Below, in pieces: positions 7,363 through 31,739 of a stretch of 32,747 nt of DNA (its first letter is position 1; the number at the start of each line of letters is the position of its first letter). Source of the DNA: a virus (Duplodnaviria > Heunggongvirae > Uroviricota > Caudoviricetes). The position numbers were made by a program, and so were the translations under genes. The stretch is from positions 1 through 32,747 of IMG/VR virus record IMGVR_UViG_2636415906_000003. One strand, 5' to 3'. The notes under the pieces are model-generated. The model searched no databases, was not told the origin of the DNA, and was given only the letters and a program-made list of their open reading frames with translations.

Positions 7363-7370
7363 ATATCACC

Positions 7371-8240: not shown

Positions 8241-8252
8241 TTTAAAGGAAAT

Positions 8253-8992: not shown

Positions 8993-9006
8993 TTCGGAGC
9001 GAGTCT

Positions 9007-9192: not shown

Positions 9193-9199
9193 GCAAATT

Positions 9200-9243: not shown

Positions 9244-9300
9244 TACAACGCGCATAAGTTGATGCGCATAACTTCTTATTTGTTAAGGAAATACTTACAT

Positions 9301-9579
9301 ATGGAACTTACAAGTACTCGCAAGAAAGCGAATGCAATTACAAGCAACATCCTGAATCGAATTGCTGTACGTGGTCAGCGAAAGGTTGCCGACGCGTTAG
9401 GGATTAATGAATCGCAAATTTCGCGATGGAAAGACAGCTTCATCCCAAAAATGGGAATGCTTCTGGCTGTTCTTGAATGGGGTGTTGAAGACGAGGAGTT
9501 GGCGGAACTGGCTAAGAAAGTAGCCAGAATGCTGACAAAAGAAAAAGCCCCGAAGAACGGCGAATTCTTCGAGGCCTGA
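9301..9579 (+). CDS. cII: CII-like transcriptional activator (P22 C1 equivalent)
   Basis: Aligns with lambda CII ([25 protein letters not shown] conserved). Start taken at ATG 9301, because the longer ORF from 9214 would run across nutR. Confidence 0.8.
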
Positions 9580-9613
9580 TGTAGAAAGACTGGATCAATC
9601 CACAGGAGTCATT

Positions 9614-9760
9614 ATGACAAAACAACTCAGTCCTTACCAGGACAAAATTCACAAACACATACTACGTGATCGCTTCCTGTCCAGCTTCAAGCAGCCTGGT
9701 CGATTCCGGGCTGAGTTGGAAAAAGTGAAGCTGATGCAGAAGGAGAAAGGTCATGAGTAA
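9614..9760 (+). CDS. Small hypothetical protein (48 aa) between cII and the replication genes
   Basis: ORF with an AGGAG-like SD, its stop overlapping the O-like gene start; positionally like the small ORF between c1 and gene 18 in P22. Confidence 0.4.
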
Positions 9761-10652
9761 CATATCTAATCTAGCCGAAGCCAGAGAGGCCAGAAGGCTA
9801 CAACAACCGCATCAAAGCAGCGGTAAGGGGTATGCCTTGCTGCACCGTAAAATTATGGATGTGCCGTTTTACAAGGACGCAGAAGCTGCGCATCTGTGGG
9901 TTCACTTAATCCTCAAAGCAAAGCATACGCCTGAGTATGTAATGACTGACGCAGGAGAAATTCTGGTAGGCAGAGGGAAGCTACTTGGCGGTAGAAACTC
10001 TCTGGCGTTTGAAACAGGACTCAAACCAGATCGCGTTCAGTACCTGCTTAGAAAGTTCAAAAAACTCGGCATGATTGACTGGGTTTCACACGGTAAATTC
10101 TCAGTTTTCTCGGTAGAGAAATATGACGATTATCAGTCAAATTTTGTACCAGCAGATTACCAGCAAATTACCACCTCAAAGCCAGCAATACCAATGCCTG
10201 CAAGCAATACTGTACCAGCAGATTACCAGCAAATTACCACAGATAAAGAATATAATAATATTATCTCTAATACTGACGTATTAGAGAGTACCGCAGCAGA
10301 CAAAAAGTCTGACAAGAAAAAACCTTCCGTTAGCTGTCAGGATGTTGTCGATGCTTACCACGAAATCCTTCCTGAAGCGCCAAGAATCCGCGCACTGAAT
10401 GACAAGCGTAAAAACCAGATCCGAACGTTCTGGCGCAAAGCCGGAGTGATAACCCGCCAGCTTGACGGGCATGGGTTCACGATGCAGGACTGGAGAAATT
10501 ATTTGAGCTACGTAGGCGAAAATTGCCGATGGATGTTCGAAGAGCGTCCAAACCATCAACGCGGAACCGTCTGGCACAAAAAGGGATTTGATTTCCTGCT
10601 TAACGATAATACCTACCTGAAAGTTCGTGAGGGTGAACACGATGACCGATAA
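9753..10652 (+). CDS. Replication initiator protein (lambda O / P22 gp18-like), containing the origin iterons
   Basis: 299-aa ORF directly upstream of the helicase gene; it contains tandem DNA iterons that encode a repeated [10 protein letters not shown] peptide, followed by an AT-rich tract. Confidence 0.65.
10145..10240. repeat. Origin-of-replication iterons inside the initiator gene
   Basis: Two exact 30-bp direct repeats tgtaccagcagattaccagcaaattaccac (10145..10174 and 10211..10240), each containing TACCAGCA sub-repeats at 11-bp spacing, followed by an AT-rich region to about 10300. Confidence 0.6.
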
Positions 10653-13333: not shown

Positions 13334-13512
13334 GACGACAGCGACGAAGTTTCACCGACATCATCTGCGAAAACTGCAAATACCTTCCAACGAAACGCTC
13401 CAGAAATAAACGCAAGCCAATCCCAAAAGAATCTGACGTAAAAACCTTCAATTACACGGCTCACCTGTGGGATATCCGGTGGCTTAGAGAACGTGCGAGG
13501 AAAACAAGGTGA
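13330..13512 (+). CDS. ninE: NinE-like protein
   Basis: 60-aa ORF ([34 protein letters not shown]...) matching my memory of lambda NinE; its start overlaps the methylase stop. Confidence 0.7.
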
Positions 13513-13679
13513 TTGACCCAAATCGAAGTTACGAACAAGAAAGCGTCGAGCGAGCTTTAACGTGCGCTAACTGCGGTCAGAAGCTGCATGTGCTGGAAGT
13601 TCACGTGTGTGAGCACTGCTGCGCAGAACTGATGAGCGATCCGAATAGCTCAATGTACGAGGAAGAAGACGATGAGTGA
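13509..13679 (+). CDS. ninF: NinF-like protein
   Basis: 56-aa Cys-rich ORF (...[25 protein letters not shown]...) matching my memory of lambda NinF; GTG start overlapping the ninE stop. Confidence 0.65.
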
Positions 13680-13776
13680 GTTAATAAATGGCAATGCCAT
13701 CAAAATGACAAGCATTGAAATCGCTGAGTTGGTGGGAAGTCGTCATCCCGGTTTATGGAAAACGCTGGTTCATTGA
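13672..13776 (+). pseudogene. 5' stub of a gene (34 codons) ending at the deletion junction
   Basis: [25 protein letters not shown]... looks like the start of a phage DNA-binding or regulatory protein, then hits a stop where the frame changes into portal-homologous sequence. Confidence 0.35.
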
Positions 13777-14947
13777 TGACATTGAGCGTGTCGAAGGGCA
13801 CATTGCAAAAGCAATGGATCCACAGCGTTTGTACAACCTTCAGGTTTCAATGCTGGCTGATACTGCAGCACAAGACCCCGGTCAGATCCCTATAGTTGGC
13901 ATGGAGCAAATTCGTGGACTTGAGAAGCACTGGGAGGCTCGCAACAAGAAACGCCCAGCGTTCTTGCCGTTGCGCGAAGTGAGAGATAAATCTGGCAACA
14001 TTATCGCTGGAGCTACCCCGGCAGGATATACACAGCCTGCGGTTATGAATCAGGCATTGGCTGCATTACTACAGCAAACCAGTGCTGATATTCAGGAGGT
14101 TACAGGCGGCAGTCAGGCCATGCAGCAGATGCCAAGTAATATTGCTCAGGAAACGGTTAACAACTTGATGAACAGAGCAGATATGGCTTCGTTTATCTAT
14201 CTGGACAATATGGCGAAAAGTCTTAAACGCGCTGGTGAAGTATGGCTGTCAATGGCGCGTGAAGTGTACGGTTCAGAACGTGAAGTGCGCATCGTTAACG
14301 AAGATGGAAGTGATGATATCGCTGTCCTGAGCGCACAGGTTGTTGACAGGCAAACAGGGGCTGTTGTTGCGTTAAATGACCTTTCTGTCGGTCGATACGA
14401 TGTGACGGTTGATGTTGGACCAAGCTACACAGCACGACGTGATGCAACGGTTTCTGTACTGACAAATGTCCTTAGCTCTATGCTTCCAACAGACCCAATG
14501 CGCCCGGCAATTCAGGGTATTATTCTGGACAATATCGATGGCGAAGGCCTTGATGACTTCAAAGAGTACAACCGAAACCAACTGCTGATATCTGGTATTG
14601 CAAAACCACGCAATGAGAAAGAGCAGCAGATTGTTCAACAGGCGCAAATGGCAGCACAAAGCCAGCCAAATCCTGAAATGGTTCTCGCTCAGGCGCAAAT
14701 GGTAGCAGCGCAGGCAGAAGCGCAAAAAGCAACTAACGAAACTGCTCAAACTCAAATCAAAGCATTTACTGCCCAGCAGGATGCGATGGAGAGTCAGGCA
14801 AACACTGTCTATAAACTGGCTCAAGCCAGAAACATCGATGACAAAGCAGTGATGGAGGCAATACGCCTTCTGAAAGATGTCGCCGAGTCACAACAACAGC
14901 AATTCCAGTCACCACCACAGTCACCGGCAGACTTAATGCCGAGTTAA
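13715..14947 (+). pseudogene. Portal protein (P22 gp1-like), C-terminal ~400 codons only; N-terminal part deleted
   Basis: From about 13742 (VIPVYGKRWF...) the translation aligns with the middle and C-terminal regions of the P22-type portal, which is more than 700 aa. The reading frame is open only from 13715 and no intact portal N-terminus or terminase gene is upstream. Confidence 0.7.
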
Positions 14948-14960
14948 CCAGGAGTAATCA

Positions 14961-15845
14961 ATGGAAAACGAACTGATCATCGACGGTCAGGTTATTGACC
15001 TGTCTGAAACACAGGAAAATGCAGAAGAAACCATCATCCAAACAGAGTCACAGCCTGAGAATGAAAGCCAGGATGACAACGGTAAAGAGGTGGAAACTGA
15101 GCCTGAAAAAACCGAAGAGACACCAGAAGATTACGCCTTGCGTATTGGTGATGAAGAAATTCAGCTTAACGCTGACGATGATGATCACATTGACGGGCAA
15201 CCTGCACCGCAATGGGTGAAAGATCTTCGCAAAGGCTTCAAAGAAACACAGAAAGAAAACCGTGAGTTGCGCCGCCAGCTTGAGGAAGCATTAGCCAAGC
15301 CAGCGGAACATCAGCAACCACAACCAGACGCTATTCCACCAAAACCGACTCTTGAGTCGTGTGATTATGACGAACAGGCGTTTGAACAGGCATTGACTGA
15401 TTGGCATGAGAAAAAAGGCCGTGTCGAACAGCAGCAGCAACAAAAACTACGTCAGCAACAGGAATACCAACAGCGTTTCCAGCAAAGGGTAGAAGCGCAT
15501 AAACAACGGGCAGCCAAACTTCCTGTGAAAGATTATCAGGAAATGGAAGCCATTGTTCTTAGTGAGCTACCACCAATTCAGCAGGAAATCATCATTCACT
15601 GTGCAGACGAAGGCTCTGAACTACTCGCCTATGGCTTAGGTAAGAGCCAGCAATTACGCCAGCGTGTAGCCGCTGAGACAGATCCAATTCGCGCAGCATT
15701 CCTCTTGGGGCAGATTAGCAAACAGGTAAGCCTTGCTCCAAAACCAAAGAAAGCCATCAAGCCAGAGCCGGAAGTACGTGGTGGCGGTGCTGATGCGAAA
15801 CAAGACGAATTCAACAAATTATGCCCCGGCGCAAAAATCGAATAA
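14961..15845 (+). CDS. Scaffolding protein (P22 gp8-like)
   Basis: 294-aa acidic, Gln-rich, helical ORF between portal and coat; LPVKDYQEMEAIVLSELPP aligns with P22 gp8 LNIPDYQEKEDAFMQLVPP. Confidence 0.75.
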   Translation: MENELIIDGQVIDLSETQENAEETIIQTESQPENESQDDNGKEVETEPEKTEETPEDYALRIGDEEIQLNADDDDHIDGQPAPQWVKDLRKGFKETQKENRELRRQLEEALAKPAEHQQPQPDAIPPKPTLESCDYDEQAFEQALTDWHEKKGRVEQQQQQKLRQQQEYQQRFQQRVEAHKQRAAKLPVKDYQEMEAIVLSELPPIQQEIIIHCADEGSELLAYGLGKSQQLRQRVAAETDPIRAAFLLGQISKQVSLAPKPKKAIKPEPEVRGGGADAKQDEFNKLCPGAKIE

Positions 15846-15856
15846 GGAAAAGATAA

Positions 15857-17128
15857 ATGCCTAACAATCTCGACAGTAACGTCAGTCAAATCGTTCTGAA
15901 AAAATTCCTTCCGGGTTTTATGTCAGATTTAGTTCTGGCAAAAACCGTATACCGTCAGTTGCTGGCAGGTGAAATCAACTCCAGCACTGGCGATAGCGTT
16001 AGCTTTAAACGTCCGCATCAATTCTCATCCCTCCGTACTCCCACTGGTGATATTTCAGGGAAAAATAAAAACAACCTGATCTCAGGTAAAGCTACGGGGC
16101 GTGTAGGTAACTACATCACTGTTGCTGTTGAATATCAGCAACTGGAGGAAGCGATCAAGCTTAACCAGCTGGAAGAAATTCTCGCGCCGGTTCGCCAGCG
16201 AATCGTTACCGACCTTGAAACAGAGCTTGCTCACTTCATGATGAATAACGGTGCGTTGTCACTTGGTAGCCCCAATACTCCAATCACCAAATGGTCTGAT
16301 GTTGCGCAGACGGCATCTTTCCTGAAAGACCTCGGCGTTAATGAAGGTGAAAACTATGCTGTAATGGATCCATGGTCTGCACAGCGACTTGCTGATGCGC
16401 AGACTGGTTTGCATGCTTCAGATCAATTGGTTCGTACTGCATGGGAGAACGCACAGATCCCAACCAATTTTGGCGGCATTCGCGCACTGATGTCTAATGG
16501 GCTTGCCTCTCGTACGCAGGGGGCATTTGGCGGAACACTGACAGTCAAAACACAGCCAACTGTTACCTATAACGCAGTTAAAGACTCATACCAGTTCACT
16601 GTAACATTGACCGGAGCGACAGCCAGCGTTACAGGTTTTCTGAAAGCTGGTGATCAGGTCAAATTCACCAATACCTACTGGCTGCAACAGCAGACCAAAC
16701 AGGCGTTGTATAACGGAGCCACACCAATTAGCTTCACTGCAACGGTTACTGCTGATGCTAATTCAGACAGCAGTGGCGATGTGACGGTTACGCTTTCTGG
16801 TGTTCCGATTTATGACACTACAAACCCGCAGTACAACTCTGTAAGTCGTCAGGTAGAGGCAGGCGATGCCGTATCTGTAGTAGGCACTGCTAGCCAGACA
16901 ATGAAGCCAAACCTGTTCTATAACAAGTTCTTCTGTGGACTTGGCTCTATCCCACTGCCGAAACTGCACAGTATTGATTCTGCTGTTGCAACATATGAAG
17001 GTTTCTCCATCCGCGTACATAAATACGCAGATGGCGATGCCAACGTGCAAAAAATGCGCTTCGACTTACTGCCTGCATATGTGTGCTTTAACCCTCACAT
17101 GGGCGGTCAGTTCTTCGGTAATCCGTAA
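15857..17128 (+). CDS. Major capsid (coat) protein (P22 gp5-like)
   Basis: 423-aa ORF after the scaffold gene with a strong SD and a terminator after it; alignable with P22 coat. Confidence 0.8.
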   Translation: MPNNLDSNVSQIVLKKFLPGFMSDLVLAKTVYRQLLAGEINSSTGDSVSFKRPHQFSSLRTPTGDISGKNKNNLISGKATGRVGNYITVAVEYQQLEEAIKLNQLEEILAPVRQRIVTDLETELAHFMMNNGALSLGSPNTPITKWSDVAQTASFLKDLGVNEGENYAVMDPWSAQRLADAQTGLHASDQLVRTAWENAQIPTNFGGIRALMSNGLASRTQGAFGGTLTVKTQPTVTYNAVKDSYQFTVTLTGATASVTGFLKAGDQVKFTNTYWLQQQTKQALYNGATPISFTATVTADANSDSSGDVTVTLSGVPIYDTTNPQYNSVSRQVEAGDAVSVVGTASQTMKPNLFYNKFFCGLGSIPLPKLHSIDSAVATYEGFSIRVHKYADGDANVQKMRFDLLPAYVCFNPHMGGQFFGNP

Positions 17129-17132
17129 TAAC

Positions 17133-17159
17133 AAGGGGCTTACGCCCCTTTTATGTTTT
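17133..17159 (+). terminator. Rho-independent terminator after the coat gene
   Basis: Hairpin aaggggc-ttac-gcccctt (17133..17150) followed by a T-rich run. Confidence 0.6.
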
Positions 17160-17170
17160 AAGGAAACAAT

Positions 17171-17356
17171 ATGGATCGGATGAGTGTATTCCTTGCCGCA
17201 GATAACGAATCCGGGCATGTACAGGCCGTTATCGCAGAAAAAGACTTCCAGTTTTTCGAAAGGTTGGGCTTTGTTGCCTCAGTTGATGAATTGAAACCGA
17301 CCAGTAAGCGAGGTCGCAAGGCGGCGGACAATGGCAACAGTACTGACAAAGGGTGA
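17171..17356 (+). CDS. Small hypothetical protein between coat and gp4 (61 aa)
   Basis: ORF with an AAGGAAA SD directly after the coat terminator. Confidence 0.45.
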   Translation: MDRMSVFLAADNESGHVQAVIAEKDFQFFERLGFVASVDELKPTSKRGRKAADNGNSTDKG

Positions 17357-17813
17357 GATCGTCCTTTTTGCGCTTCGTAAGTTTGCTATTGCTTCTAATG
17401 CATCGCTTACTGATGTTGAGCCGCAATCAATTGAAGATGGTGTAAATGATCTGGAAGATATGATGTCCGAGTGGATGATTAACCCCGGCGACATTGGTTA
17501 CGCTTTCGCAACTGGAGATGAGCAGCCATTACCAGATGATGAGTCAGGTCTTCCAAGAAAATACAAACACGCAGTAGGCTATCAGTTATTGCTGAGAATG
17601 CTATCTGATTACAGCCTTGAACCAACTCCGCAAGTTCTCAGTAACGCCCAACGCTCATATGATGCCTTGATGACCGACACTCTGGTTGTTCCTTCAATGC
17701 GACGACGTGGAGATTTTCCTGTAGGGCAGGGTAATAAATATGACGTGTTCACATCTGACCGATATTATCCAGGCGATCTCCCTCTGATTGATGGCGATAT
17801 CCCAAACGCATAG
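17331..17813 (+). CDS. Head completion / tail adaptor protein (P22 gp4-like)
   Basis: 160-aa ORF; [23 protein letters not shown] aligns with P22 gp4 [23 protein letters not shown]. Confidence 0.7.
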   Translation: [160 protein letters not shown]

Positions 17814-17821
17814 GTGAATAA

Positions 17822-19240
17822 ATGCCTATTCAGCAACTTCCGCTTATGAAAGGTGTCGGCAAAGACTTCCGAAACGCCGACTATATCGACTATCTGCCAG
17901 TGAATATGTTGGCTACACCCAAAGAAATCCTGAACAGCAGCGGATATCTTCGCTCATTCCCGGGCATTGCCAAACGTTCTGATGTGAACGGTGTATCGCG
18001 CGGAGTCGAGTACAACATGGCGCAGAATGCTGTTTATCGTGTCTGTGGTGGCAAGCTCTACAAAGGCGAAAGCGAAGTCGGTGACGTCGCCGGAAGTGGT
18101 CGCGTATCAATGGCACATGGTCGGACATCTCAGGCTGTAGGCGTTAATGGTCAACTGGTCGAGTATCGCTATGATGGCACGGTTAAAACCGTCTCAAACT
18201 GGCCTGCAGACAGCGGATTTACGCAGTATGAGTTAGGTTCAGTCCGCGACATTACACGCTTACGTGGGCGTTATGCGTGGTCAAAAGACGGCACGGATTC
18301 ATGGTTTATCACTGACCTTGAAGACGAATCGCATCCTGACCGTTACAGCGCACAATATCGTGCCGAGTCGCAGCCGGACGGCATCATCGGCATCGGAACA
18401 TGGCGAGACTTCATCGTCTGCTTTGGTTCATCGACGATTGAATATTTTTCCCTGACAGGTGCAACCACCGTTGGTGCCGCGTTGTATGTCGCACAGCCAT
18501 CACTGATGGTGCAGAAAGGAATTGCCGGGACTTACTGTAAAACGCCGTTTGCTGATTCGTATGCGTTTATCAGCAATCCGGCAACAGGTGCGCCGTCTGT
18601 ATACATCATCGGCTCCGGTCAGGTGTCACCAATTGCCAGTGCGAGCATTGAGAAAATCCTCCGCTCCTACACTGCTGATGAACTGGCTAATGGTGTGATG
18701 GAATCGCTGAGATTTGATGCTCATGAGTTGCTGATTATCCACCTTCCGCGCCATGTTCTCGTGTACGACGCATCTTCAAGCGCCAATGGTCCGCAATGGT
18801 GCGTACTGAAAACAGGACTGTATGACGATGTATACCGCGCTATCGACTTCATTTACGAAGGCAATCAGATAACGTGCGGCGATAAGCTGGAATCGGTGAC
18901 CGGGAAATTGCAGTTCGATATCAGCAGTCAGTATGGGCTTCAACAGGAACACCTGCTGTTTACTCCACTGTTCAAAGCGGATAACGCCAGATGCTTCGAT
19001 CTGGAGGTGGAATCATCCACTGGCGTAGCTCAGTATGCCGACCGCCTGTTCCTCTCTGCAACCACTGACGGCATCAATTACGGGCGTGAGCAGATGATTG
19101 AGCAGAATGAACCGTTCGTTTACGACAAACGCGTTTTGTGGAAGCGTGTCGGGCGAATAAGGAAAAATGTCGGCTTCAAATTGCGCGTTATCACTAAGTC
19201 ACCTGTCACCCTGTCTGGCTGCTCTATTAGGCTGGAGTAA
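17822..19240 (+). CDS. Tail accessory protein (P22 gp10-like)
   Basis: 472-aa ORF matching my memory of P22 gp10 along its full length (MPIQQLPLMKGVGKDFRNADYIDYLPVNMLATPKEILNSSGYLRSFPGI...). Confidence 0.85.
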   Translation: MPIQQLPLMKGVGKDFRNADYIDYLPVNMLATPKEILNSSGYLRSFPGIAKRSDVNGVSRGVEYNMAQNAVYRVCGGKLYKGESEVGDVAGSGRVSMAHGRTSQAVGVNGQLVEYRYDGTVKTVSNWPADSGFTQYELGSVRDITRLRGRYAWSKDGTDSWFITDLEDESHPDRYSAQYRAESQPDGIIGIGTWRDFIVCFGSSTIEYFSLTGATTVGAALYVAQPSLMVQKGIAGTYCKTPFADSYAFISNPATGAPSVYIIGSGQVSPIASASIEKILRSYTADELANGVMESLRFDAHELLIIHLPRHVLVYDASSSANGPQWCVLKTGLYDDVYRAIDFIYEGNQITCGDKLESVTGKLQFDISSQYGLQQEHLLFTPLFKADNARCFDLEVESSTGVAQYADRLFLSATTDGINYGREQMIEQNEPFVYDKRVLWKRVGRIRKNVGFKLRVITKSPVTLSGCSIRLE

Positions 19241-19242
19241 TA

Positions 19243-19737
19243 ATGATTTCACATGAAGAGTTGAAGCGTCATTTATCATATGACCCAGAAACCGGGGTTT
19301 TTACCCGAAAAATATCAAATACAGCGAGCGTCACCGTTGGTGATGAAGCGGGAACCATGTGCACTGGTTATTTAAGGATAATGGTCTGTGGTAAGAGATA
19401 CTTAGCGCATAGGCTTGCTTGGTTTTATATGACAGGAAAACCTGCAAATTGCTTAATAGATCATATTAACGGAGACAGAACGGATAACAGATTTTCAAAT
19501 TTAAGATTGGCAAATAGATCCCAGAATGGGATGAACAGGAATATTCAAAGAAATAATAAGTCAGGATATCCGGGTGTCTGTTGGCACAAAAATCTCTGCA
19601 AGTGGACTGTTTCTTTCAAGAAAAATAAAAAACAGGTTCACGTTGGATGCTTCGATGACCTGGACGAAGCTATCTCAGCATCAATGATGGCAAGAGCAGA
19701 AAATTTTGGAGAGTTTGCAAGGCAGAGGATCGAGTAA
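19243..19737 (+). CDS. HNH homing-type endonuclease with AP2-like DNA-binding domain
   Basis: HNH motif ([25 protein letters not shown]) plus an AP2-like segment ([31 protein letters not shown]); the gene is visibly more AT-rich than its neighbours. Confidence 0.8.
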
Positions 19738-20438
19738 TGGTTGATTCATCACTGAATGATCCTGTCGTGGTTCAGGCTACGCGCCTTGATGCTTCAATTT
19801 TGCCACGCAATATATTCAGCCAGTCTTACCTGCTGTATGTCATAAATCAGGGTGCTGATGTCGGTGCGATTGCTGGGAAGGCAAATCAGGCTGGTCAGGG
19901 CGCTTATGATGCTCAAGTGAAAAACGATGAACAGGACGTCGAACTGGCAGATCACGATGCAAGAATCACCGCAAACACAAAAGCGATAAATCTCCTTGAG
20001 GTCAGGTTAACAACTGCCGAAGGGAAGATAGTCGTACTGCGTAGCGATGTTGATTACTTGCTGGATGAGGTTATCGATATTCAGGCGCATCTGGTCACTG
20101 TTGACCAAAGACTGGATGGCGTAGAAAGCGATGTATCTGACATTAAGAGTGATTACGTATCGAAAACCGTAACCGAATCGCAGTCTCTTGCGTCACCGCT
20201 GGATGTAAAAACATCATATTCAGTTGATGGAATTCAGGTTGTTGGAGCAAGAAATACCGGATGGACTGCAGCCACAGGTACACCTCTTCTTGGCTCATTC
20301 AACGCTAACCAGTCATACACGGTCGGCACTACGTACACACAATCCGAAGTCGCGGCTCTCGCTACAGGTTTGCAGCAGGCGCGGCAGCGTATTCTGGCGC
20401 TTGAAACAGCACTTAGATTACATGGGCTGATTGACTGA
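19737..20438 (+). CDS. Tail needle protein (P22 gp26-like)
   Basis: 233-aa ORF matching P22 gp26 at the N-terminus ([17 protein letters not shown]) and C-terminus ([20 protein letters not shown]...LRLHGLID). Confidence 0.85.
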
Positions 20439-20893
20439 TGATTACATTCAAACCAACGCGAAACATCGACTTGATCGAAGCAGTCGGAAATCACCCTGAC
20501 ATTATTGCCGGGAGCAACAACGGTGATGGATACGACTACAAGCCTGAATGCCGTTACTTCGAGGTGAACGTGCACGGGCAGTTTGGCGGCATTGTTTACT
20601 ATCAGGAGATTCAGCCGCTTACATTCGATTGCCACGCCATGTACCTGCCAGAGGTTCGTGGATTCAGCAAGGAAATCGGTCTGGCGTTCTGGCGATACAT
20701 TCTGACTAACACCACTGTTCAGTGCGTCACATCGTTCGCTGCACGCAAATTCCGCCATGGTCAGATGTACTGCGCAATGATTGGCCTTAAGCGTGTAGGA
20801 ACCATCAAGAAATACTTCAAAGGCGTGGATGACGTGACGTTTTACAGCGCCACACGCGAAGAACTAATCGACTTCCTGAATCACGGGAGATAG
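20438..20893 (+). CDS. Virion assembly protein at the gp14 position (P22 gp14-like)
   Basis: 151-aa ORF between the gp26 and gp7 homologues, its start overlapping the gp26 stop; assigned by position. Confidence 0.55.
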   Translation: MITFKPTRNIDLIEAVGNHPDIIAGSNNGDGYDYKPECRYFEVNVHGQFGGIVYYQEIQPLTFDCHAMYLPEVRGFSKEIGLAFWRYILTNTTVQCVTSFAARKFRHGQMYCAMIGLKRVGTIKKYFKGVDDVTFYSATREELIDFLNHGR

Positions 20894-20895
20894 CC

Positions 20896-21591
20896 ATGTT
20901 ATATGCATTTAAGCTGGGCAGAAAACTGCGCGGCGAGGAACCTTATTGCCCTGAAAAAGGCGGGAAAGGTGGCAGTTCTGATAAAAGTGCAAAGTATGCC
21001 GCAGAAGCTCAGAAGTATGCCGCAGACCTGCAAAATCAGCAGTTCAACACCATCATGAACAACCTGAAGCCGTTTACTCCTCTGGCTGGGAAGTATGTCG
21101 GCAGCCTTGAGAACTTATCGTCTCTGGAAGGGCAAGGTCAGGCACTTAACCAGTATTACAACTCTCAGCAGTACAAAGATCTTGCTGGTCAGGCTCGCTA
21201 TCAGAGTCTGGCGGCAGCGGAAGCAACAGGTGGATTAGGTTCCACCGCAACCAGTAATCAGTTAGCAACAATCGCACCAACGCTTGGTCAGCAATGGCTA
21301 TCTGGTCAGATGAACAACTACCAGAATCTGGCAAATATTGGTCTTGGCGCACTGCAAGGTCAGGCAAACGCCGGGCAGACATATGCCAACAACATGAGTC
21401 AGATTTCGCAGCAAAGTGCGGCTCTTGCAGCGGCAAATGCCAACAGACCATCAGCAATGCAATCTGCTATTGGCGGGGGTGCGTCTGGTGCTATTGCTGG
21501 GGCTGGACTTGCGAAATTAATTGGTTCATCAACTCCGTGGGGTGCTGGTATCGGTGCTGGTATCGGTCTGCTTAGTTCACTGCTTTATTAA
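20896..21591 (+). CDS. Ejection (DNA transfer) protein (P22 gp7-like)
   Basis: 231-aa Gln/Ala/Gly-rich ORF with a hydrophobic Gly-rich C-terminus, in the gp7 position. Confidence 0.75.
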   Translation: MLYAFKLGRKLRGEEPYCPEKGGKGGSSDKSAKYAAEAQKYAADLQNQQFNTIMNNLKPFTPLAGKYVGSLENLSSLEGQGQALNQYYNSQQYKDLAGQARYQSLAAAEATGGLGSTATSNQLATIAPTLGQQWLSGQMNNYQNLANIGLGALQGQANAGQTYANNMSQISQQSAALAAANANRPSAMQSAIGGGASGAIAGAGLAKLIGSSTPWGAGIGAGIGLLSSLLY

Positions 21592-21601
21592 GGGGTAATC
21601 A

Positions 21602-23017
21602 ATGGCTACGTGGCAACAGGGTATTAATTCTGGTGGTTTTCTGGCTGGCATCGGTACGCAAAATGAGAATGCGCCAAAGGCAAGCGACATTAACGCAACG
21701 CTTGGTCTGATCCGCGAAAACAATGAACTGGCTCGCTCAGGTGCAAATAACGTTGGTCTGACCGCGTTACGTGGTCTGGCTGGAGTTGCTGATATTTACA
21801 ATCAGGAACAGCAACAGAAAGCGATTAGTGCGTTCAATAAGGTTCATGCTGATGCATGGGCTTCTGGTGATCCATCTGGACTATTTAAGTTTGCCCAGGA
21901 AAATCCAGCGTTTGTTGCACAGGCACAACAGGCGTTTTCCGGTCTTAATGAGCAGCAACGCAACGATATGGGCGATTTAGCCATGAGGGCTAACGTCGCT
22001 CTTTCTCAGGGACCGGAAGCCTACAGTAAATTCATTACTGACAACAAGGACAGGTTAAATCGCGTGGGGGCGAATGCTGACTGGATGATTCAGACAGGTA
22101 TCCAGAATCCAGAGCAGCTATCACACATGCTGACTACTATGTCTCTCGGTGCGCTTGGACCAGAAAAGGCGTTTGCTGTTCAGGATAAGATGGCTGGTCG
22201 TGAAATTGACCGAGGCAGGCTGGCAGAGACAATCCGCAGCAATCAGGCTGGTGAAGCACTTCAGGCGAGAGGGCAAAACCTTTCCTATCAGTCAGCAATG
22301 ACTGGGCACAATATCGCAGCACAACGCTTGGCTCTGGATCAGCAAGAGTTCGGGTTTAAGATGCAGCAAGCGCAGGAAAAGGCTCAGCAGTTGATTAGTG
22401 AAGCACCTAAGCTGTCAGTAAACATGGAAAAAGGCATCGAGACGGCTGTAAACAATGCCACAGCATCATCAAACTCAGCCAATTCTATGAGTGCGCTTGC
22501 TCAACAGTTCAGAGCAGAAAAACCAACGACAGGTTTGTTCGGTAACGCACAGAACATGTTCGCAAAACTTACCGGAAGCGATACAACATTGCGTGATTTG
22601 CGCATTCGCCAAAATGCCCTTGTTAACAGTCAGGTTCTTAAATTCCTACCTCCCGGCCCAGCAACGGATAAAGACGTTGAGATCGTTCGACAGGGTGCGC
22701 CAACTGACATGGATAACCCTGAGACGGTCGCAAGATGGCTTGATGCAATGGCAAACCTTGAGCGACGAAACGCGCAGTTTAATGAGTTTAAAGCCGAGTG
22801 GATGAGCGCGAATGGCAACCCTGGACAATCGCGTAATGGCGGTCAGATATTGGGGTTGGATGTTAAAAAAGGTGAATCATTGGGGAGTGCCGTTAAGCGG
22901 TATATGTCAATGAATACTGACGCAGCGCCAGCACAAGATTCGACACCTTCAGGAGAACCACGGAATCAGGTTGGATCATATACCTCAAAATCAGGCATTC
23001 AATTTACGGTGGAATGA
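21602..23017 (+). CDS. Ejection protein (P22 gp20-like)
   Basis: 471-aa ORF in the gp20 position, the same length as P22 gp20. Confidence 0.8.
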
Positions 23018-24846
23018 TGAAAGTAACTGCAAACGGTAAGACATTTACCTTTCCTGATGGTACGAGCACCGAAGATATTGGCACCGCCATTGATGAGTAT
23101 TTTGCTGGTCAGGCTGTTCAGCAACAAACAGTTAATCAGGCCAATAATGCACCAACACGGGAAGAACCATCATTGATGCAACAAGCTGGCGATTGGCTCA
23201 CTGGTGGTCAAAGTGCAGGGCAAATTGCAGAACAGGCTGGCCGTGGTCTGGTAAACATACCATTTGACGTATTGCAGGGTGGTGCAAGTCTGATTAATGC
23301 AATCAGTCAGGGGCTTGGTGGGCCAAAAGTATTGGATGATGTTTATCGTCCAGTAGACAGACCGACAGACCCCTACGCGCAAGCCGGTGAAACAATTGGT
23401 GGGTATTTAGTTCCAGGAGTTGGAACGGCAGGAAGCATGGCTATTGGATCACTGGCAGAGGCCGCAAATCAGAAAGGCGATTTCGCACAAAATGCAACTA
23501 AAAATGCCGGAGTTAACCTTGCCGCTCAGGGGGTTCTTTCCGCAGCAGCAAAGGGAATAGGGCGTGGAATTACTGCTGTTCGTGGCGAAATATCACCAGC
23601 AGATCAGCAATTGCTCAAGCGTGCCGCTGCGGCAGATGTACCAGTTATGACATCGGATGTAGTTCCTCCAAAAACAAAACTTGGCAATCAACTGCAGGGT
23701 TACTCAGAAGGAGTCATAGCTGGGACTGGACCAATGAGAGCCGCACAGCAGGATGCTAGAACCAAGCTTGTTAATCGCTTCACCGAAAAATACGGCGACT
23801 ACGATCCATCTGTAGTCGTTGATAGTCTAAAGTCAGGCGTTGCAAGGGAAAAATCGTTAGCCAAGTCAAAACTAAACAACCTGTCAGGAAGAATGGTTGG
23901 AAAGCCAGTTGATACAAGTGGCGCCATAAGAGCTATCGACGGAGCAGTAAACGAACTTGGGAAACTTAAAGGTGTTTCTGACACCCAGACCATTTCTGCG
24001 CTTAATGATTATAAGAATGCCATTCAGGAGATAACAAATGGAGATGATGCCTTTGAGTTACTTGATAAGCTGAGAACTCAGTTCCGCATTGACGTAAAAG
24101 GCGATCGTACAGTTCTGCCATCAATGTCGCAAACAATGGTCGACAGGGTCTACAACTCGCTAACCAATAGCCTTAGTAAATCTATAGCGAAAGGACTTAG
24201 CCCAAAAGATGCTTCAGCATGGAGAGCGGGAAAAGCTGATTATGCAAAAATGGCAACACATGCAACTCAAACGCGCCTTAAAAACGTTCTAAACAAAGGA
24301 GATTTAACTCCCGAGGCTGTAAATACCATTGTGTATGGACAATATGGGTCAGATATAGCTCGATTGTACGGGAAACTCGATCAAAAAGGTAAAGACATGC
24401 TAAGGGCGGCATATATCAGCAAAATAGCTGACAAGGTAGGTGACAGCCCTCAGAAAATGATGACCGAGCTTGGCAAGCTGCAAAAACAAGCAAATGGTCA
24501 GGTGTTTAAAACTGTATTTGGTGGGAAGAACGGAAAAGAGATAGAGGGGATGTTATCTATTCTCGATGCTACCAAAAGAGCATCTGAGGCTAATGTTGTG
24601 ACGAAGACTGGCATGACACTCGCGCCTTTGGTAAGGGTTATTGGTAACCTAAAAACCGGAGGCGCGCTATTGGCTGGGGAAACAGGGATTGGCCTTATGT
24701 CGAGGGTTTATGAAAGCCCTATGGCTAGGAATGCGCTCTTACGTCTGGCAAACACTAAAGCTGGAACGCCAGCTTATGAAAGAGCGCTGAATAACGCCGC
24801 AAATGCCATCAGACCAATACTTGCCAATGATGCAACTGATCGCTAA
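23014..24846 (+). CDS. Ejection protein (P22 gp16-like)
   Basis: 610-aa ORF in the gp16 position, its start overlapping the gp20 stop. Confidence 0.8.
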
Positions 24847-24867
24847 GGGTTGATGTCATGGATGTTG

Positions 24868-25507
24868 TTAATTGCGAATGGAATCGCGGAACTCTTTGCT
24901 TGATAGAAAAGGATCTGTTCTCCTTAACTCATCATAGTTTTTATTAAACTTTCTTGCTTCACCTGGGTATCTGTTGAACAAAACATTGCAGAAAAAAGAG
25001 AGCAATAACTCACATATGAATGCTAATACCCTGAAAAATAAAGGTATAAAAAGAAGGGAAGGTTCATTGAAGTCTCTATTCCAAACAAAATAGACAATCA
25101 TCCCGACATACCAAATTGATATCCCTATACTGATGATTGTTCCAACAGAGGTAACTACGATCCCGATTAAGTCGGACAGTCTGTTTGCCAGTAACTCATT
25201 TGAGTATCTTGCAATCATATACCGCCAACATTTTGCAATATCATCCTGATCTGTAGAGTCTTCTGGAATAGCTAGGCTTCTACATATTGAAGTAGCTCTT
25301 TTTTTCTCAACTCTTTTTGAGAGCCATCCATTAAAGAGATACATCAACACCTGCGTTGCTATTCCTGCACCAAGTGATATCAAAGACATCCCCAAAAATC
25401 GCCATCCTGGAGATAGTGACTGGTACTGCCAAAACAAAAAAAATTAAAAAACCCAATGAGCCTATGACATAGGCTGATGTATCGCTATATATATCTATTT
25501 TTTTCAT
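24868..25507 (-). CDS. Polytopic membrane protein at the sieA position (candidate superinfection exclusion protein); possibly frameshifted
   Basis: An ATG-initiated 58-codon frame (25507 down to 25331) encodes one predicted TM helix; a second frame (reaching 25437 down to 24868) encodes three more. The frames overlap around T5/G4 runs near 25385..25400. AT-rich. Confidence 0.45.
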
Positions 25508-25557
25508 TGAGTAGCCACTCCTTAGTTTTGAGCAGAACACCGGATGATAATGTTTTG

Positions 25558-25809
25558 TTATGTGTCTTTTGGGATTCTATCCAGTAACTCGTTGGAAATT
25601 TTATCAAGTAAAGATTTTATTTGTTTAAGATCTAATGATTTGTCTACTGATGAGACGTCATATGATAACGCATCCTCAAGAATTTGAACTATCTCTGAGT
25701 TCATAGATCGACCGTTTCGTTTAGCCCTTTCCGCAATAGCACTACGCATGCCGTCAGGCATTCTAACCGTAAATCTTTCTATGAAATTTGATTCGTCTTT
25801 TTCTGACAT
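25558..25809 (-). CDS. mnt: Mnt-like ribbon-helix-helix repressor
   Basis: RHH N-terminus aligning with P22 Mnt (FTVRMPDGMRSAIAERAKRNGRSMNSEIVQILEDALS against FNFRMPMEVREKLKFRAEANGRSMNSELLQIVQDALS); divergent from the arc-like gene. Confidence 0.65.
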   Translation of the reverse strand: MSEKDESNFIERFTVRMPDGMRSAIAERAKRNGRSMNSEIVQILEDALSYDVSSVDKSLDLKQIKSLLDKISNELLDRIPKDT

Positions 25810-25892
25810 TTTCTTATTCGCAAGGCATATGAGCAATAAAAAACACAGTAGCATCATATTGACATTATGAGCAATGGCATCATAATGGTGTC

Positions 25893-25913
25893 ATGACATC
25901 ATGGTGATGTCAT
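25893..25913. promoter_or_regulatory. Operator-like perfect palindrome between the divergent mnt-like and arc-like genes
   Basis: atgacatca-tgg-tgatgtcat is a 21-bp palindrome, with further catcat / gtcatgac repeats in 25860..25925. Confidence 0.5.
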
Positions 25914-25929
25914 TATGACGGAGATATTG

Positions 25930-26106
25930 ATGATGAGCGATGTTCTTTACAGTGGTCGTAAAAGTCAGAGTTTCCAGCTTCGTTTGCCAGCGCGAATGAA
26001 GGAGGAGATCAGACGCGTAGCTGAAATGGATGGAATTTCTATCAACTCTGCGATTGTGCAGCGACTGGCTAAAAGCCTGAGAGAGGAAAGAGCTAATGCC
26101 CAGTAA
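25930..26106 (+). CDS. arc: Arc-like ribbon-helix-helix repressor
   Basis: 58-aa ORF with GGAG SD; SFQLRLPARMKEEIRRVAEMDGISINSAIVQRL aligns with P22 Arc (PQFNLRWPREVLDLVRKVAEENGRSVNSEIYQRV). Confidence 0.7.
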   Translation: MMSDVLYSGRKSQSFQLRLPARMKEEIRRVAEMDGISINSAIVQRLAKSLREERANAQ

Positions 26107-26179
26107 AAATAGTGAAGCCCGGCAGTGCGCGAACACAAACCGGGCCTCTATGTCAGTAACCGTATGCAAGGAAACTAAC

Positions 26180-26806
26180 ATGAATATTGTAGCAAAATCA
26201 GATTACAACTTCCACGGAGTTGAGTTGGTGCCCACCCGTGATATGCATGGTGTTTGGTTTACATCATCTAATATTGCATCTGCACTTAAATACGCAAATA
26301 GTCGTGCAGTAACAATGATTTATAACAAGTATAGCGATGAGTTTAGCGCCGGAATGACTCAGGTACTCGAAGTGAGTACCTCAGGAAATTATCGCAAAAA
26401 AGTGCGAGTTTTCTCACTACGCGGTGCCCACCTAATCGCGATGTTTGCTCGCACTCCGGTAGCCAAAGGGTTCCGCCGCTGGGTGCTGGATATTTTGGAT
26501 CGGCAGGCAGAATGCTCACCGATTGCAAAACAGTTTACTGACGAAGAACTGGTTAATCTCTGCTACTTACAATTGTGGATGGAGAAGAGTCAACAAATGT
26601 GCAAACACATCTACCCAGGAATGAAGCAAATTGGTTCTGAGCTTTCAGGAAGGATTTACGATATTGCATATGAGACTCGCTACATGTCAGAAGAAACCAA
26701 GAAATCGCTTCTTCGTGAAATGAAGAATCTTGGTACCAACAATTTTGTCGTAAAGAACGCTCAGCCAATGCTGGCAAAACTTCGCGGCGAGGAATGGATT
26801 CATTGA
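26180..26806 (+). CDS. ant: Antirepressor, AntA/Bro-N-type N-terminal domain protein
   Basis: Lies downstream of arc; PVAKGFRRWVLDILDRQAE aligns with the P22 Ant motif PEAKPFRRWVTSEVLPSIRQ. Start taken at ATG 26180 after an AAGGAAA SD. Confidence 0.65.
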   Translation: MNIVAKSDYNFHGVELVPTRDMHGVWFTSSNIASALKYANSRAVTMIYNKYSDEFSAGMTQVLEVSTSGNYRKKVRVFSLRGAHLIAMFARTPVAKGFRRWVLDILDRQAECSPIAKQFTDEELVNLCYLQLWMEKSQQMCKHIYPGMKQIGSELSGRIYDIAYETRYMSEETKKSLLREMKNLGTNNFVVKNAQPMLAKLRGEEWIH

Positions 26807-27850: not shown

Positions 27851-27879
27851 AACCCGCTTAATCGCGGGTTTTTTCTTTT
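27851..27879 (+). terminator. Rho-independent terminator after the ant operon
   Basis: Hairpin aacccgc-ttaatc-gcgggtt (27851..27870) followed by ttttcttttc; it overlaps the 3' end of the convergent mnt-like gene. Confidence 0.55.
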
Positions 27880-28115
27880 CTAAGAATATCAGCCGCAACT
27901 TCTTTTACTCGTTCCGAGATTAATGAGGCAAGCCTCTCTTCTTCATCACGATACCCGCTTACAGGTGATGGTTTGGAGAGCGATTCTTCCATCGTAGCCA
28001 CAATTTCGGAATTGATAGACCTGTTATTCATTTTTGCACGTTGCTTAATCTTGGCGTGCAACTCGTGCGTAAGCCTCAAGTGGAACTGCGCCTCATCGTA
28101 TTTGCTGTACATCAT
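27858..28115 (-). CDS. Second Mnt-like ribbon-helix-helix repressor, divergent from the tailspike gene
   Basis: [17 protein letters not shown] matches P22 Mnt SKPSPVTGYRNDAERLA, with an RHH N-terminus ([10 protein letters not shown]). Start at ATG 28115 with a GGTGAGG SD. Confidence 0.7.
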
Positions 28116-28247: not shown

Positions 28248-30254
28248 ATGACAGATTCAATAAATGCCAATGTTGTAGTGAGTATGCCTTCGCAACTCTT
28301 CACTATGGCTCGTTCTTTTAAAGCTGTAGCCAATGGCAAAATTTATATCGGTAAAATTGACACTGACCCGGTAAATCCTGAAAACCAGATTCAGGTTTAT
28401 GTAGAGAATGAAGACGGCTCTCACGTTCCTGTTTCGCAACCAATCATCATTAACGCTGCCGGATATCCGGTATATAACGGGCAGATTGCCAAGTTCGTAA
28501 CTGTGCAAGGCCATTCTATGGCTGTTTATGATGCATACGGTGCGCAGCAGTTCTATTTTCCGAATGTGCTGAAGTATGATCCTGATCAGTTATCTATAAA
28601 ACTATCAAGTAATATTGGATACAAATACATTGGAATGGTAGAGAGCGCTAACTCCCTTAAAGATATACAAGGAATGTCGATATCTGATAAATTATATTTA
28701 AAATCATACGTATCCGGACTCGAACTTGGTGGTGGGTTTGTTGTAGCTGTAGACAAGTCAATTGCAGTTGATAACGTAATGGTTTTAGAAGGTAACGGTG
28801 TAAATTGGAAGAGAATAAACCCAAGCCTTGAGTTTTCTGTATATGACGCTGGTTACAGCGGCGCTGGGGATATTGCATTATTTATTAATAAAATAAACTC
28901 TCTAGGTTATGATTGCGTTGTTCCATGTAGTGGAGAATTCTCGTCTTTAATTGATATTGATTTCGCGAAGGGTGGGTTAAGAGGATCGAATAAATGCGTT
29001 TTAACTGAGATTAATGGGATATCAGGTGATTATGCAATTAGGTTAAGCAACTCTAATATTTCTTATGAAAATAGGGATGAAATAAATGCAACATCAATTT
29101 TAGATGGCATATCTTTTAAGATGCTAGGATCTAAAAAGATTTTACTTGGAGGTATTGGCACTGGTGAATTATCAGAGTTAAGAATAAGTAATTCTTCATT
29201 CATATCATCTGCTGGAATTGAGTTTCTTGATAATTCATATAGAATTTTATTTGACAAAGTAACAATATCAAGATGTCTAAACAACACAATTATATTTAAT
29301 TCTCCATCAAACTCAGGCGAGGTAATGACATTTAATAATTGTTGGGTTGTTGATAATGGAGGTCCATTGACAATTAGAAATGGTCAATTTATTTTTAACT
29401 GTTGCTCTATGCCATCAGGTAAGAAAGAAGGTTATTTTGATTCTACTGTTTTTATTGAAGATAACGCAACCGTTGTTTACTCAAGTGGAAATATTGAGTT
29501 TCAGCCAGGTCAAAGCTTTGTGGCGTTCTCTGCATCTGGAAGCACAAGAATAAGCATTAAAGATACAACGCTACTTACTCCCTCTGGATATAGTTCAGTT
29601 CCGTTTGTTGTAAATGATGATTCAGTACTTTCATTAACAAATTGCTCATTGCCTTTATTTGACCAAATGGATTTGGCGACAGGATCAGCAACTAGACAGG
29701 TAGTTGGAGGTAATAGTAAAAAAATAATGTCATATGGATGCTATCCACGATCTGGATTTATAACAACTCAGTGGGATAAAGGGAACATAGTTAGTCCATA
29801 CATAAATTCGCTATCAAATGGAAGTGGACAGTTTTTAAACTACTCTAACTGGAGCCTTCAACAAACTGGTTCAGGTGTTGTTACAGCAGGAACGGATTCT
29901 GATGTTCCAAATGATATTATGTTTTCCAGGTCTTTGTATGTAGCAATACCATCTATAGGAGCATCTGCAAAATTTTATCAGGAGTGCTCAGACTGCTCAC
30001 CAGGACGATATTTCCAGTTAGGTTTTTGGGCTAAGAATCAAGTGACAACAATCTCTGGTATTGAGTTTTTTGATAAAGAAGGGAACTCTGTTCAGGGAAA
30101 AGCAACATTTACAATTCCACTAGGCTCCACATGGAATTTCTACGCATTAATAGATATTGTTCCTCCTGGAGCAAGCAAAGTTAGGATTGATTTTGATGTT
30201 TCCGGTGAAGCAGGCTCTCTTCATTTGCATAATGTTATTTATGGGCTGATTTGA
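28248..30254 (+). CDS. Tailspike protein: P22 gp9-like N-terminal head-binding domain fused to a divergent beta-helix receptor-binding domain
   Basis: First ~115 aa closely match P22 gp9 ([48 protein letters not shown]...), with no recognisable P22 similarity beyond about residue 120. The remainder is AT-rich and Asn/Ser/Gly-rich. Start at ATG 28248 after a GGAG SD. Confidence 0.85.
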
Positions 30255-30345
30255 AGATTTCACATCTAATGTGACCAAACTTAGACAAAACAAAGCCTTG
30301 TCTGGATTGCAAAGCTTTGTACTATCCGATAGTGGTTAAGGTTGG

Positions 30346-31503
30346 TCACTCCACCTTTTCATCAATCCAATCCGCCCACCATTGCATCATTTCTCTGCGC
30401 TTTTCTAGATACTGAGCATGGTTGTAAATCCCACGCACAGATCCGCCGTTGGCATGTGCCAGTTGCACTTCAATAGCGTCAGCAGGCCATTCGTGCTCGT
30501 TCATAATTGTGCTGAATTCATGCCTGAATCCGTGACCGCTTTCCAGACCCTCATAGCCGATTTGTTTGATCACAAGCAGCACCGCGTTCTCGCAGATCGG
30601 CTTCTTCTTATCGTTGCGCCCGGCAAAAACAAACTCTGATACTGGTTTGGTGATTGAGCTTAGCGTAGTGAGAAGTTCAACCACCTGGTCTGACATCGGG
30701 ACCACATGAATCTTGCGGCCCTTCATCACACTGGCGTCGATAGTGATAATCCTGTTTTCAAAATCGACGTTCTTCCATTGCATGGAGCGAAGTTCTTTTG
30801 TTCTGAGGGCTGTGTAGCGTAAAACTTTGGTTGCAATGAGCGATACGATACTTCCTGAAAATGTTGCCAGTGCTTTGTTGAATGCCGGGATCTGGTCTGC
30901 AGGAAGAAACGGGAAGTTCTTCTTGCGGTATCCCTTCATGGCGTCAGCAAGGTCAGGTGCTGGGTTATATTTAGCCCTGCCGGTGACAATAGCGTAACGG
31001 AAAACCTCGCCGCATCTTCTACGTGCTTTGTTGGCTCGCTCCATTGCACCGCGATCTTCAAATCTGCGGATTACTTCCAGCAGTTGTATCGGCTCAATAT
31101 CCTGAATTTCAAGGCCGCCGATGATAGGTAAAATGTCGTCATCAAACATTTTTGCAAGTTCAGTTGCATATCCTACTGACCAGACTTGCTTCTTGTGCTC
31201 GTACCATTCCTTGTAAATGGCACTAAAGGAATTGTTGTTAGACGAAGCCTTTTTCGCTTTTACCGGATCGATGCCAACCGAGATGTCTTTCCTCGCAGTC
31301 CATGCTTTATCCCTTGCCTCCTGCAAAGTCATTAGCGGATATTTTCCTACGGTCAGGATTTTCTCCTTACCGTCAATCTTGTAGCGAAGCTGCCATACCT
31401 TTTTCCCTGACACAGGGACATAAAGGTACAGGCCATTACCATCGAGTAGGCGGTATGGTTTTTCTTTCGGCTTGGCTGCTTCAATCTGCTTAACGGTGAG
31501 CAT
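30346..31503 (-). CDS. intS: Tyrosine integrase, IntS/P4-family
   Basis: Adjacent to tRNA argW; the 385-aa product from ATG 31503 (MLTVKQIEAAKPKEKPYRLLDGNGLY...) matches my memory of E. coli IntS. An in-frame ATG at 31539 would add 12 codons. Confidence 0.85.
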   Translation of the reverse strand: MLTVKQIEAAKPKEKPYRLLDGNGLYLYVPVSGKKVWQLRYKIDGKEKILTVGKYPLMTLQEARDKAWTARKDISVGIDPVKAKKASSNNNSFSAIYKEWYEHKKQVWSVGYATELAKMFDDDILPIIGGLEIQDIEPIQLLEVIRRFEDRGAMERANKARRRCGEVFRYAIVTGRAKYNPAPDLADAMKGYRKKNFPFLPADQIPAFNKALATFSGSIVSLIATKVLRYTALRTKELRSMQWKNVDFENRIITIDASVMKGRKIHVVPMSDQVVELLTTLSSITKPVSEFVFAGRNDKKKPICENAVLLVIKQIGYEGLESGHGFRHEFSTIMNEHEWPADAIEVQLAHANGGSVRGIYNHAQYLEKRREMMQWWADWIDEKVE

Positions 31504-31664
31504 GGGTAAAAATCCGGTGGGTAAAATTATTTTATCCACTTTTTACCCGTCATGGAGTGCGGCTGTCAACGATCTGACGCGAACCATTACGAACTGTGAA
31601 TCTACGGAAGGCTTGATATTCAGTGGATTTTGCGGACTGGTACGGATGGGAGCGAACTGATAAA

Positions 31665-31739
31665 TGGTGTCCCCTGCAGGAATCGAACCTGCAATTAGCC
31701 CTTAGGAGGGGCTCGTTATATCCATTTAACTAAGAGGAC
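31665..31739 (-). tRNA. argW: tRNA-Arg (anticodon CCU)
   Basis: Read from the minus strand: acceptor stem, D-arm, anticodon loop CUCCUAA (anticodon CCU), T-arm GGTTCGATTCC and a 3' CCA; 75 nt. Confidence 0.9.

Follow-up and report, generated by a model that had tools for sequence, protein, structure and literature searches.

A P22-type head-binding domain joined to an O78-type receptor-binding body in a prophage tailspike of Escherichia coli ACN001

The tailspike gene and its two modules

The stretch of DNA analyzed here (the window; 32,747 nucleotides (nt), IMG/VR record IMGVR_UViG_2636415906_000003) is a part of the chromosome of avian-pathogenic Escherichia coli (APEC) ACN001, as positions 1–25000 match this strain alone among 5426 complete genomes at 100% length and 100% identity, and it carries a prophage with a tailspike gene, which is the subject of this study. 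The tailspike open reading frame (ORF) is intact and runs on the plus strand from the ATG at 28248 to the stop codon at 30254 (668 codons). RefSeq carries the identical coding sequence in ACN001 as a “phage head-binding domain-containing protein” (WP_048943226.1), and the “tail protein” family phrog_4217 matches the protein over its full length (E = 1e-264), while an NCBIfam scan of the whole protein yielded no family. A mechanical ORF list contained a longer, 737-amino acid (aa) ORF starting from TTG 28041; we rejected it and preferred ATG 28248, because a GGAG Shine–Dalgarno motif lies 8 nt upstream of the latter, alignment to the N-termini of the P22 and Sf6 tailspikes starts at residue 1, and the extension overlaps the divergent arc/mnt gene. 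Promoter and terminator scans around the gene detected sites no more numerous than in shuffled sequences, and no terminator between the tailspike and integrase genes.

The features of the gene are listed below; 5W6H is the structure of the enzymatically active fragment (TSP4dN) of tailspike protein 4 (TSP4) of phage CBA120, and Dpo42 is the ORF42 product of phage vB_EcoM_ECOO78.

28248..30254, plus strand: tailspike coding sequence, 668 aa and stop (RefSeq WP_048943226.1; phrog_4217)
28248..28589, plus strand: head-binding (virion anchor) domain, aa 1–114, ending in YDPDQ (PF09008; Sf6 gp14 92%, P22 gp9 75%)
28590..28595, plus strand: module junction (DNA alignment; 5W6H HMMER alignment from aa 114; Dpo42 homology from aa 115)
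28587..28646, plus strand: neck/linker, aa ~114–133, with a low-confidence model helix at 112–118; aligned to TSP4 ~483–502, before D3' (PMC7506556)
28647..28811, plus strand: D3'-like insertion module, aa ~134–188, a short helix and four strands; aligned to TSP4 503–557 (PMC7506556)
28860..29747, plus strand: capping helix and right-handed parallel beta-helix (D3-like, presumed catalytic), aa ~205–500 (model, Foldseek)
29835..30251, plus strand: C-terminal beta-sandwich (D4-like), aa ~530–668, ten strands within 535–661; aligned to the TSP4 C-terminus

The initial annotation, made from the sequence, described the first ~115 residues as nearly identical to P22 gp9. The family assignment stands, as the Pfam domain Head_binding (PF09008) is recognized at aa 4–114 with 219 bits against a cut-off of 24 (E = 1e-65, profile positions 3–113 of 113), but near-identity is an overstatement, since 85 of 113 residues (75%) are shared with P22 gp9, compared with 104 of 113 (92%) shared with Sf6 gp14, the closest solved relative. 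The motif YDPDQ at aa 109–113 closes the head-binding domain, and the variable body then begins. By the PF09008 domain, the YDPDQ hinge, and the P22-like virion and immI gene context, the protein is a tailspike of the P22 family (Lederbergvirus). Given the 92% identity to the N-domain of Sf6 gp14, which structure 7sg7 shows attached to the tail, the anchor trimer would dock on the gp4/gp10 tail hub. The anchor is common in E. coli: gene nt 1 to ~345 are matched in 1149 of the 5426 genomes at 93–97% nucleotide identity.

Downstream of the anchor, similarity to P22 ends, as the initial annotation had proposed. The full-length P22 tailspike (2xc1) aligns to aa 5–151 only, and in DNA alignments with the P22-like tailspike genes of E. 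coli P13-6 and UTME-3, the sequences agree almost perfectly through gene nt 344 and abruptly lose similarity thereafter, so that the break falls at window position ~28592, directly 3' of the YDPDQL codons. Likewise, anchor-only genome matches stop at query nt 342–353, and the full gene is matched in just 14 of the 5426 genomes. A match to phrog_8280 (“colanic acid degradation”) was rejected as evidence on the substrate, because it covers only aa 2–154, that is, the shared anchor.

The shift to AT-rich DNA from about position 28600, also pointed out initially, is evident: the GC content is 35.3% across 28590–30254 (23.8% at third codon positions), compared to 42.7% in the anchor and 46.6% in the remaining window, and this low GC content sets the body apart from the rest of the prophage as foreign in composition. 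The C-terminal part was further described as rich in Asn, Ser, and Gly; this holds for Ser (13.7%) and Gly (10.5%), but Asn is not enriched (7.2% vs. 8.0% in the N-terminal domain). Homologous bodies elsewhere also lie below the surrounding GC content, with 42% in the Dpo42 body against 49% in its flanks, and 41% in the body found in strain H10407. The GC content of the body equals that of the host O78 antigen biosynthesis cluster (35.0%; positions 14047–26527 of the extracted ACN001 locus), which may be a coincidence.

Thus, the tailspike is an ordinary modular chimera of two modules, a conserved virion-attachment domain and an exchanged sugar-cutting domain, and the latter was gained in a recombination event directly downstream of the conserved codons for YDPDQ.

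The beta-helix body and its likely substrate

A sequence search of the Protein Data Bank (PDB) with HMMER aligned aa 114–668 almost without gaps to residues 144–697 of the 5W6H chain (TSP4 ~483–1036; E = 3e-213), with the body being ~58% identical to TSP4 of CBA120. In TSP4, the D3' domain (503–557) is followed by the beta-helix D3 and then by the beta-sandwich D4 (PMC7506556). An AlphaFold2 model built on 37 homologues (identities 52–94%) reproduces this order, with neck, D3', beta-helix, and C-terminal beta-sandwich modeled at a predicted local distance difference test score (pLDDT) of 80–95 in the body. The D3'-like module consists of helix 135–139 and strands 148–151, 163–169, and 185–189 (pLDDT 82–95), and the beta-helix, of helix 209–218 and about 30 short strands (pLDDT mostly 75–96). 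Foldseek comparison of the model with PDB returned 5W6H first (E = 5e-59, TM score 0.65); the next hits, Klebsiella K2 tailspikes, CBA120 TSP2, and Acinetobacter tailspikes, are likewise depolymerases with a parallel beta-helix. The beta-helix-like repeat pattern noticed in the initial annotation is therefore seen both in the sequence match to 5W6H and in the predicted structure.

No Pfam model matched the body in our scan; several of its homologues bear the precomputed accession PF27114. The family is abundant in databases, one 94%-identical cluster alone having 152 member sequences. Salmonella enterica, including subsp. diarizonae, has 667-aa P22-like tailspikes with bodies 77–86% identical to that of ACN001, which may point to an O-antigen of Salmonella akin to that of E. 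coli O78, or to a flow of the module between genera.

Eleven carboxylates invariant among the 37 homologues are catalytic candidates: Asp208, Asp222, Asp238, Glu254, Glu310, Glu325, Asp336, Glu358, Asp369, Glu417, and Asp458. As the catalytic residues of the body are candidates only, and as esterases occur among tailspikes of the same modular logic (G7C gp63.1; PMC7506556), one could think of a body that modifies the glycan as a deacetylase or esterase, or cuts it as a lyase rather than a hydrolase. We regard this as extremely unlikely, given that the fold match is with beta-helix glycosidases rather than with SGNH esterases, and that TSP4 has been reported to cleave O78 (PMC8825819).

What the body cuts can be judged from its relatives. 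TSP4 cleaves the E. coli O78 O-antigen (PMC8825819; PMC10408124, Table S1), and its residues 480–1036 grafted onto the TSP4 of another phage transfer spotting on E. coli O78 (PMC9965104); the engineered boundary, aa 480, coincides with the natural junction of the ACN001 tailspike, where aa 114 aligns to TSP4 ~483. BLASTP against tailspikes of known specificity, proposed as a check in the initial annotation, gave Dpo42 at 63% identity over the alignment and ~63–69% on the body, with true homology from aa 115. The alignment reaches back to aa 71, which might be taken for a shared anchor; we rejected this part as a gap-filled low-identity extension rather than homology. Dpo42 is a purified active depolymerase of a phage isolated on E. 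coli O78-3 (PMC5539073).

Tblastn against phage genomes detected the body at 53–63% identity behind unrelated N-termini in many phages (ep3, ECOO78, CBA120, PhaxI, FEC14, PhAPEC5/7, EC1-UPM, Bp4, phiWAO78-1, AVIO78A, phiHAO78-1, PD06, XT18/32/73), those from O78 hosts including EC1-UPM, phiWAO78-1, AVIO78A, phiHAO78-1, and XT18/32/73. Overall, it occurs at 53–69% amino acid identity behind unrelated anchors in Kuttervirus, Jilinvirus, Gamaleyavirus, Kagunavirus, Justusliebigvirus, and other phages, in agreement with the initial suggestion that the receptor module has been exchanged horizontally. Pas et al. assign receptor-binding subtypes at an identity of at least 30% over at least 60% coverage; at ~58% over aa 114/124–668, the body is, by sequence and architecture, a receptor-binding domain (RBD) of the O78 subtype (CBA120 TSP4/Dpo42 type).

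Since TSP4 cleaves O78, many phages carrying the body come from O78 hosts, and ACN001 has O78-family wzx and wzy genes, the substrate of the body is most likely the E. coli O78 O-antigen, which gives a name to the glycanase against a particular O-antigen or capsule predicted in the initial annotation. Judging from the structures known for P22 and Sf6, the protein would form a homotrimer fixed to the tail hub by aa 1–114, and, by analogy with TSP4 and Dpo42, its beta-helix body would bind the O78 repeats and cleave them endolytically, both the bond cut and the residues cutting it being putative. Such cleavage would open a path for the virion to the outer membrane ahead of DNA ejection. The D4 domain of TSP4 is a twisted antiparallel beta-sandwich resembling carbohydrate-binding proteins, and its counterpart here may contribute to carbohydrate binding, as has been suggested for D4 of TSP2 and TSP4 (PMC7506556).

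Host O-antigen, other carriers, and the state of the prophage

The host O-antigen cluster, to which the initial annotation had advised comparing the tailspike, is located between galF and gnd in ACN001 and carries O78-family wzx and wzy. The O78 wzy gene is present in 40 of the 5426 genomes, and homologues of the body (blastn, 11-nt words), in 18, nine of which have O78 wzy, an enrichment with hypergeometric P = 1e-15 if phylogeny is ignored. O78 hosts are present in every allele group of the body. Taking the anchor, the body, the host, and the integration site together, we consider it quite probable that the gene belongs to a temperate P22-like (Lederbergvirus-type) phage residing at argW and specifies its tailspike, with an O78-type body.

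Several observations weigh against this explanation. Nine of the 18 carriers have no O78 wzy: the O-antigen cluster is of type O145 in NC22 and of type O35 in XB2, and O100 wzy is found in seven human isolates (Survcare253, isolateD, and five CM1513xx records). The substrate of Dpo42 has been described as capsular polysaccharide, not O-antigen (PMC5539073), and identity to the characterized enzymes is only 56–69%, so the specificity of the body could have drifted. We found no catalytic residues of TSP4 in the accessible literature. In the AlphaFold model, which is that of a monomer, the anchor is poor (pLDDT < 50), and hence its fold is assigned by sequence homology only.

The report on Dpo42, the near-identical tailspikes in O35, O145, and O100 hosts, and the ~58% identity to TSP4 might together indicate a depolymerase with a substrate other than O78, for which one could think of capsular material such as K80, of some other exopolysaccharide, or of a set of O-antigens that is different from O78 or extends beyond it. 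We consider this unlikely, though worth weighing, as the O78 specificity of TSP4 was determined at the protein level and moves with the module (PMC8825819, PMC9965104), the body homologues that come from O78 hosts span at least eight phage genera (PMC10408124), carriers of the body are strongly enriched in O78 genomes, and every non-O78 carrier shares its allele, at an identity of at least 99.5%, with an O78 carrier. Moreover, NC22 and XB2 appear to be relatives of ACN001 that have changed their O-antigen. Both hold pieces of the ACN001 prophage at 100.0% identity, and in the 6.6-kb marker emrY–evgS, compared with ACN001 and several labeled O78 APEC strains, NC22 is identical and XB2 has one mismatch. 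This makes a switch plausible, and O-antigen replacement within the ACN001 lineage after lysogeny is the simplest reading of the two strains. For the O100 clone, a link to the O78 lineage like that of NC22 and XB2 was not found, which is a further point against O78; its tailspike allele also occurs in the O78 strain TW14425, and its O-antigen locus (in Survcare253) is a mosaic that contains both galF and the rfbBDAC set in duplicate, along with the remnant of an O154 wzx gene and insertion sequence (IS) elements.

Two O78 strains have such tailspikes in a broken form. In the enterotoxigenic E. coli (ETEC) H10407 (O78:H11), an O78-type body belongs to a prophage of a different type, and the gene is split by the IS66-family element ISCro1 (locus 5414–10418); in VTB97022v (O78), a P22-like O78-type tailspike gene is interrupted by IS2.

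The genes and sites around the tailspike are the following.

26096..26806, plus strand: antirepressor-like gene, Bro-N and P22AR C-terminal domains (profile matches)
27858..28112, minus strand: Arc/Mnt-type repressor gene (immI-like region), divergent from the tailspike gene (PF03869 Arc, E = 4e-15; RefSeq “Arc family DNA-binding protein”)
30346..31539, minus strand: IntS-type tyrosine integrase gene, convergent with the tailspike gene (RefSeq, profile match)
31665..31739, minus strand: tRNA-Arg(CCT) gene argW, the prophage integration site; its 3' 15 nt (31665–31679) recur at 1312–1326

The prophage spans window positions ~1312–31679, about 30 kb, and is bounded by two copies of a 15-nt sequence, TGGTGTCCCCTGCAG, which is the 3' end of argW (1312–1326 and 31665–31679). 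The 3' 30 nt of argW (31665–31694) are repeated at the far end of the prophage as two pieces, the 15-mer at 1312–1326 and a 16-mer at 1620–1635, which flank a torI-like excisionase gene (1400–1600); the 15-mer is probably the att core. P22-like genes of the prophage encode a truncated portal, scaffold, P22 major capsid protein, gp4, gp10, DNA transfer proteins, Arc/Mnt, antirepressor, and argW integrase. An HNH endonuclease gene (19243–19737) is annotated in the virion-assembly block, between the gp10-like and downstream tail genes. Outside the prophage, window positions 1–870 start inside a sucrose-utilization locus, where a gene for a cscB-like oligosaccharide transporter of the major facilitator superfamily is annotated as a pseudogene with an internal stop.

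O-antigen-modifying genes are known near the tailspike genes of related phages, oac in Sf6 and gtrABC in P22. The 91 bp (30255–30345) between the tailspike stop codon and the convergent integrase gene of ACN001 contain none, and thus the phage apparently does not seroconvert its host from the tailspike locus.

The prophage is defective, and ~8–10 kb appear to have been lost between ninF and the portal gene. The portal ORF (13715–14947) matches only positions 276–594 of the 594-position P22_portal profile, and the RefSeq annotation between ninF (13509–13679) and the portal gene has no terminase, holin, endolysin, or late-regulator genes. Consequently, the ACN001 tailspike is probably a recent relic rather than a protein in current use, and, the prophage having been disabled recently, the mechanism outlined above would describe the ancestral virion.

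A stronger version of this, that the intact-looking ORF is a decaying, inactive remnant of a dead prophage, may be suggested by the portal lacking ~275 N-terminal profile positions, by the absence of annotated terminase, holin, and endolysin genes, and by the tailspike copies in VTB97022v and H10407 being broken by IS elements. We find it very unlikely, as the ORF is of full length and retains the residues invariant in the 37 homologues (by construction of the alignment), and the tailspike is 100% identical in three strains and 98–99% identical in others, with nothing suggesting inactivating changes. The same identities show that the deletion in the prophage is recent. Besides, decay concerns the present use of the tailspike in ACN001, not the identity of the protein.

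The distribution of the tailspike, intact in a virion-less prophage and near-identical in O35, O145, and O100 hosts, could also evoke a life beyond its own phage, either as an O-antigen depolymerase retained by the host (acting against O78 competitors, on its own surface glycans, or in biofilm), or as an enzyme with a specificity broader than O78. We hold this to be very doubtful, as the distribution is all that speaks for it, and retention does not indicate selection, because the identical sequences imply that both the deletions and the O-antigen switches are too recent.

Significance and comparison with known systems

The ACN001 tailspike is a clean textbook case of tailspike modularity, with a conserved anchor, a recombination junction at the hinge, and a body that eight or more phage genera have in common. 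It illustrates that the O-serogroup of a lysogen, here O78, which is important in APEC and ETEC, can be predicted from a prophage tailspike; at the same time, the non-O78 carriers call for caution when serotypes are predicted from receptor-binding proteins (RBPs) or prophage tailspikes. As a further natural allele of the O78-type depolymerase, the body (aa 114–668) might be of use in serotyping reagents, engineered pyocins or phages, and anti-biofilm enzymes.

By its anchor, the tailspike resembles those of the lederbergviruses Sf6 (gp14) and P22 (gp9), which have the same head-binding domain, the same YDPDQ junction, and the same position after immI next to int/att; the bodies, however, are unrelated in sequence. 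The Sf6 and P22 tailspikes are endorhamnosidases, acting on the Shigella flexneri Y and Salmonella O:4/O:9/O:2 antigens, respectively.

By its body, it resembles TSP4 (ORF213; 5W6H) of the kuttervirus CBA120, in which the same module is arranged in the same order (neck, D3', beta-helix, D4). The two differ in the N-terminal part: TSP4 has 480 residues comprising a baseplate anchor, XD1–3, and a D1–D2 head, and belongs to a branched four-spike complex of a myovirus, whereas the ACN001 protein has the 114-aa P22-type head-binding domain of a podovirus instead; the bodies have diverged by ~42%. The closest phage homologue of the body is Dpo42 of the jilinvirus vB_EcoM_ECOO78 (and of ep3), which differs in having a 187-aa N-terminal anchor, in belonging to a myovirus, and in the substrate being described as capsular polysaccharide (PMC5539073).

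The modularity of P22-like tailspikes is classical, and the combination of a Lederbergvirus anchor with an O78-type body has already been published, hence the ACN001 tailspike does not represent a new kind of system. Pas et al. (2023; PMC10408124) described the O78 RBP subtype across genera and included the Lederbergvirus prophage tailspike RHB17-C10 (Table S1, Figure 7). The latter (CP057690.1) shows the same combination as ACN001, a Lederbergvirus anchor, delineated at aa 123, followed by an RBD of the O78 subtype recognized by homology to TSP4, and in both proteins the O78 assignment is made in silico (PMC10408124).

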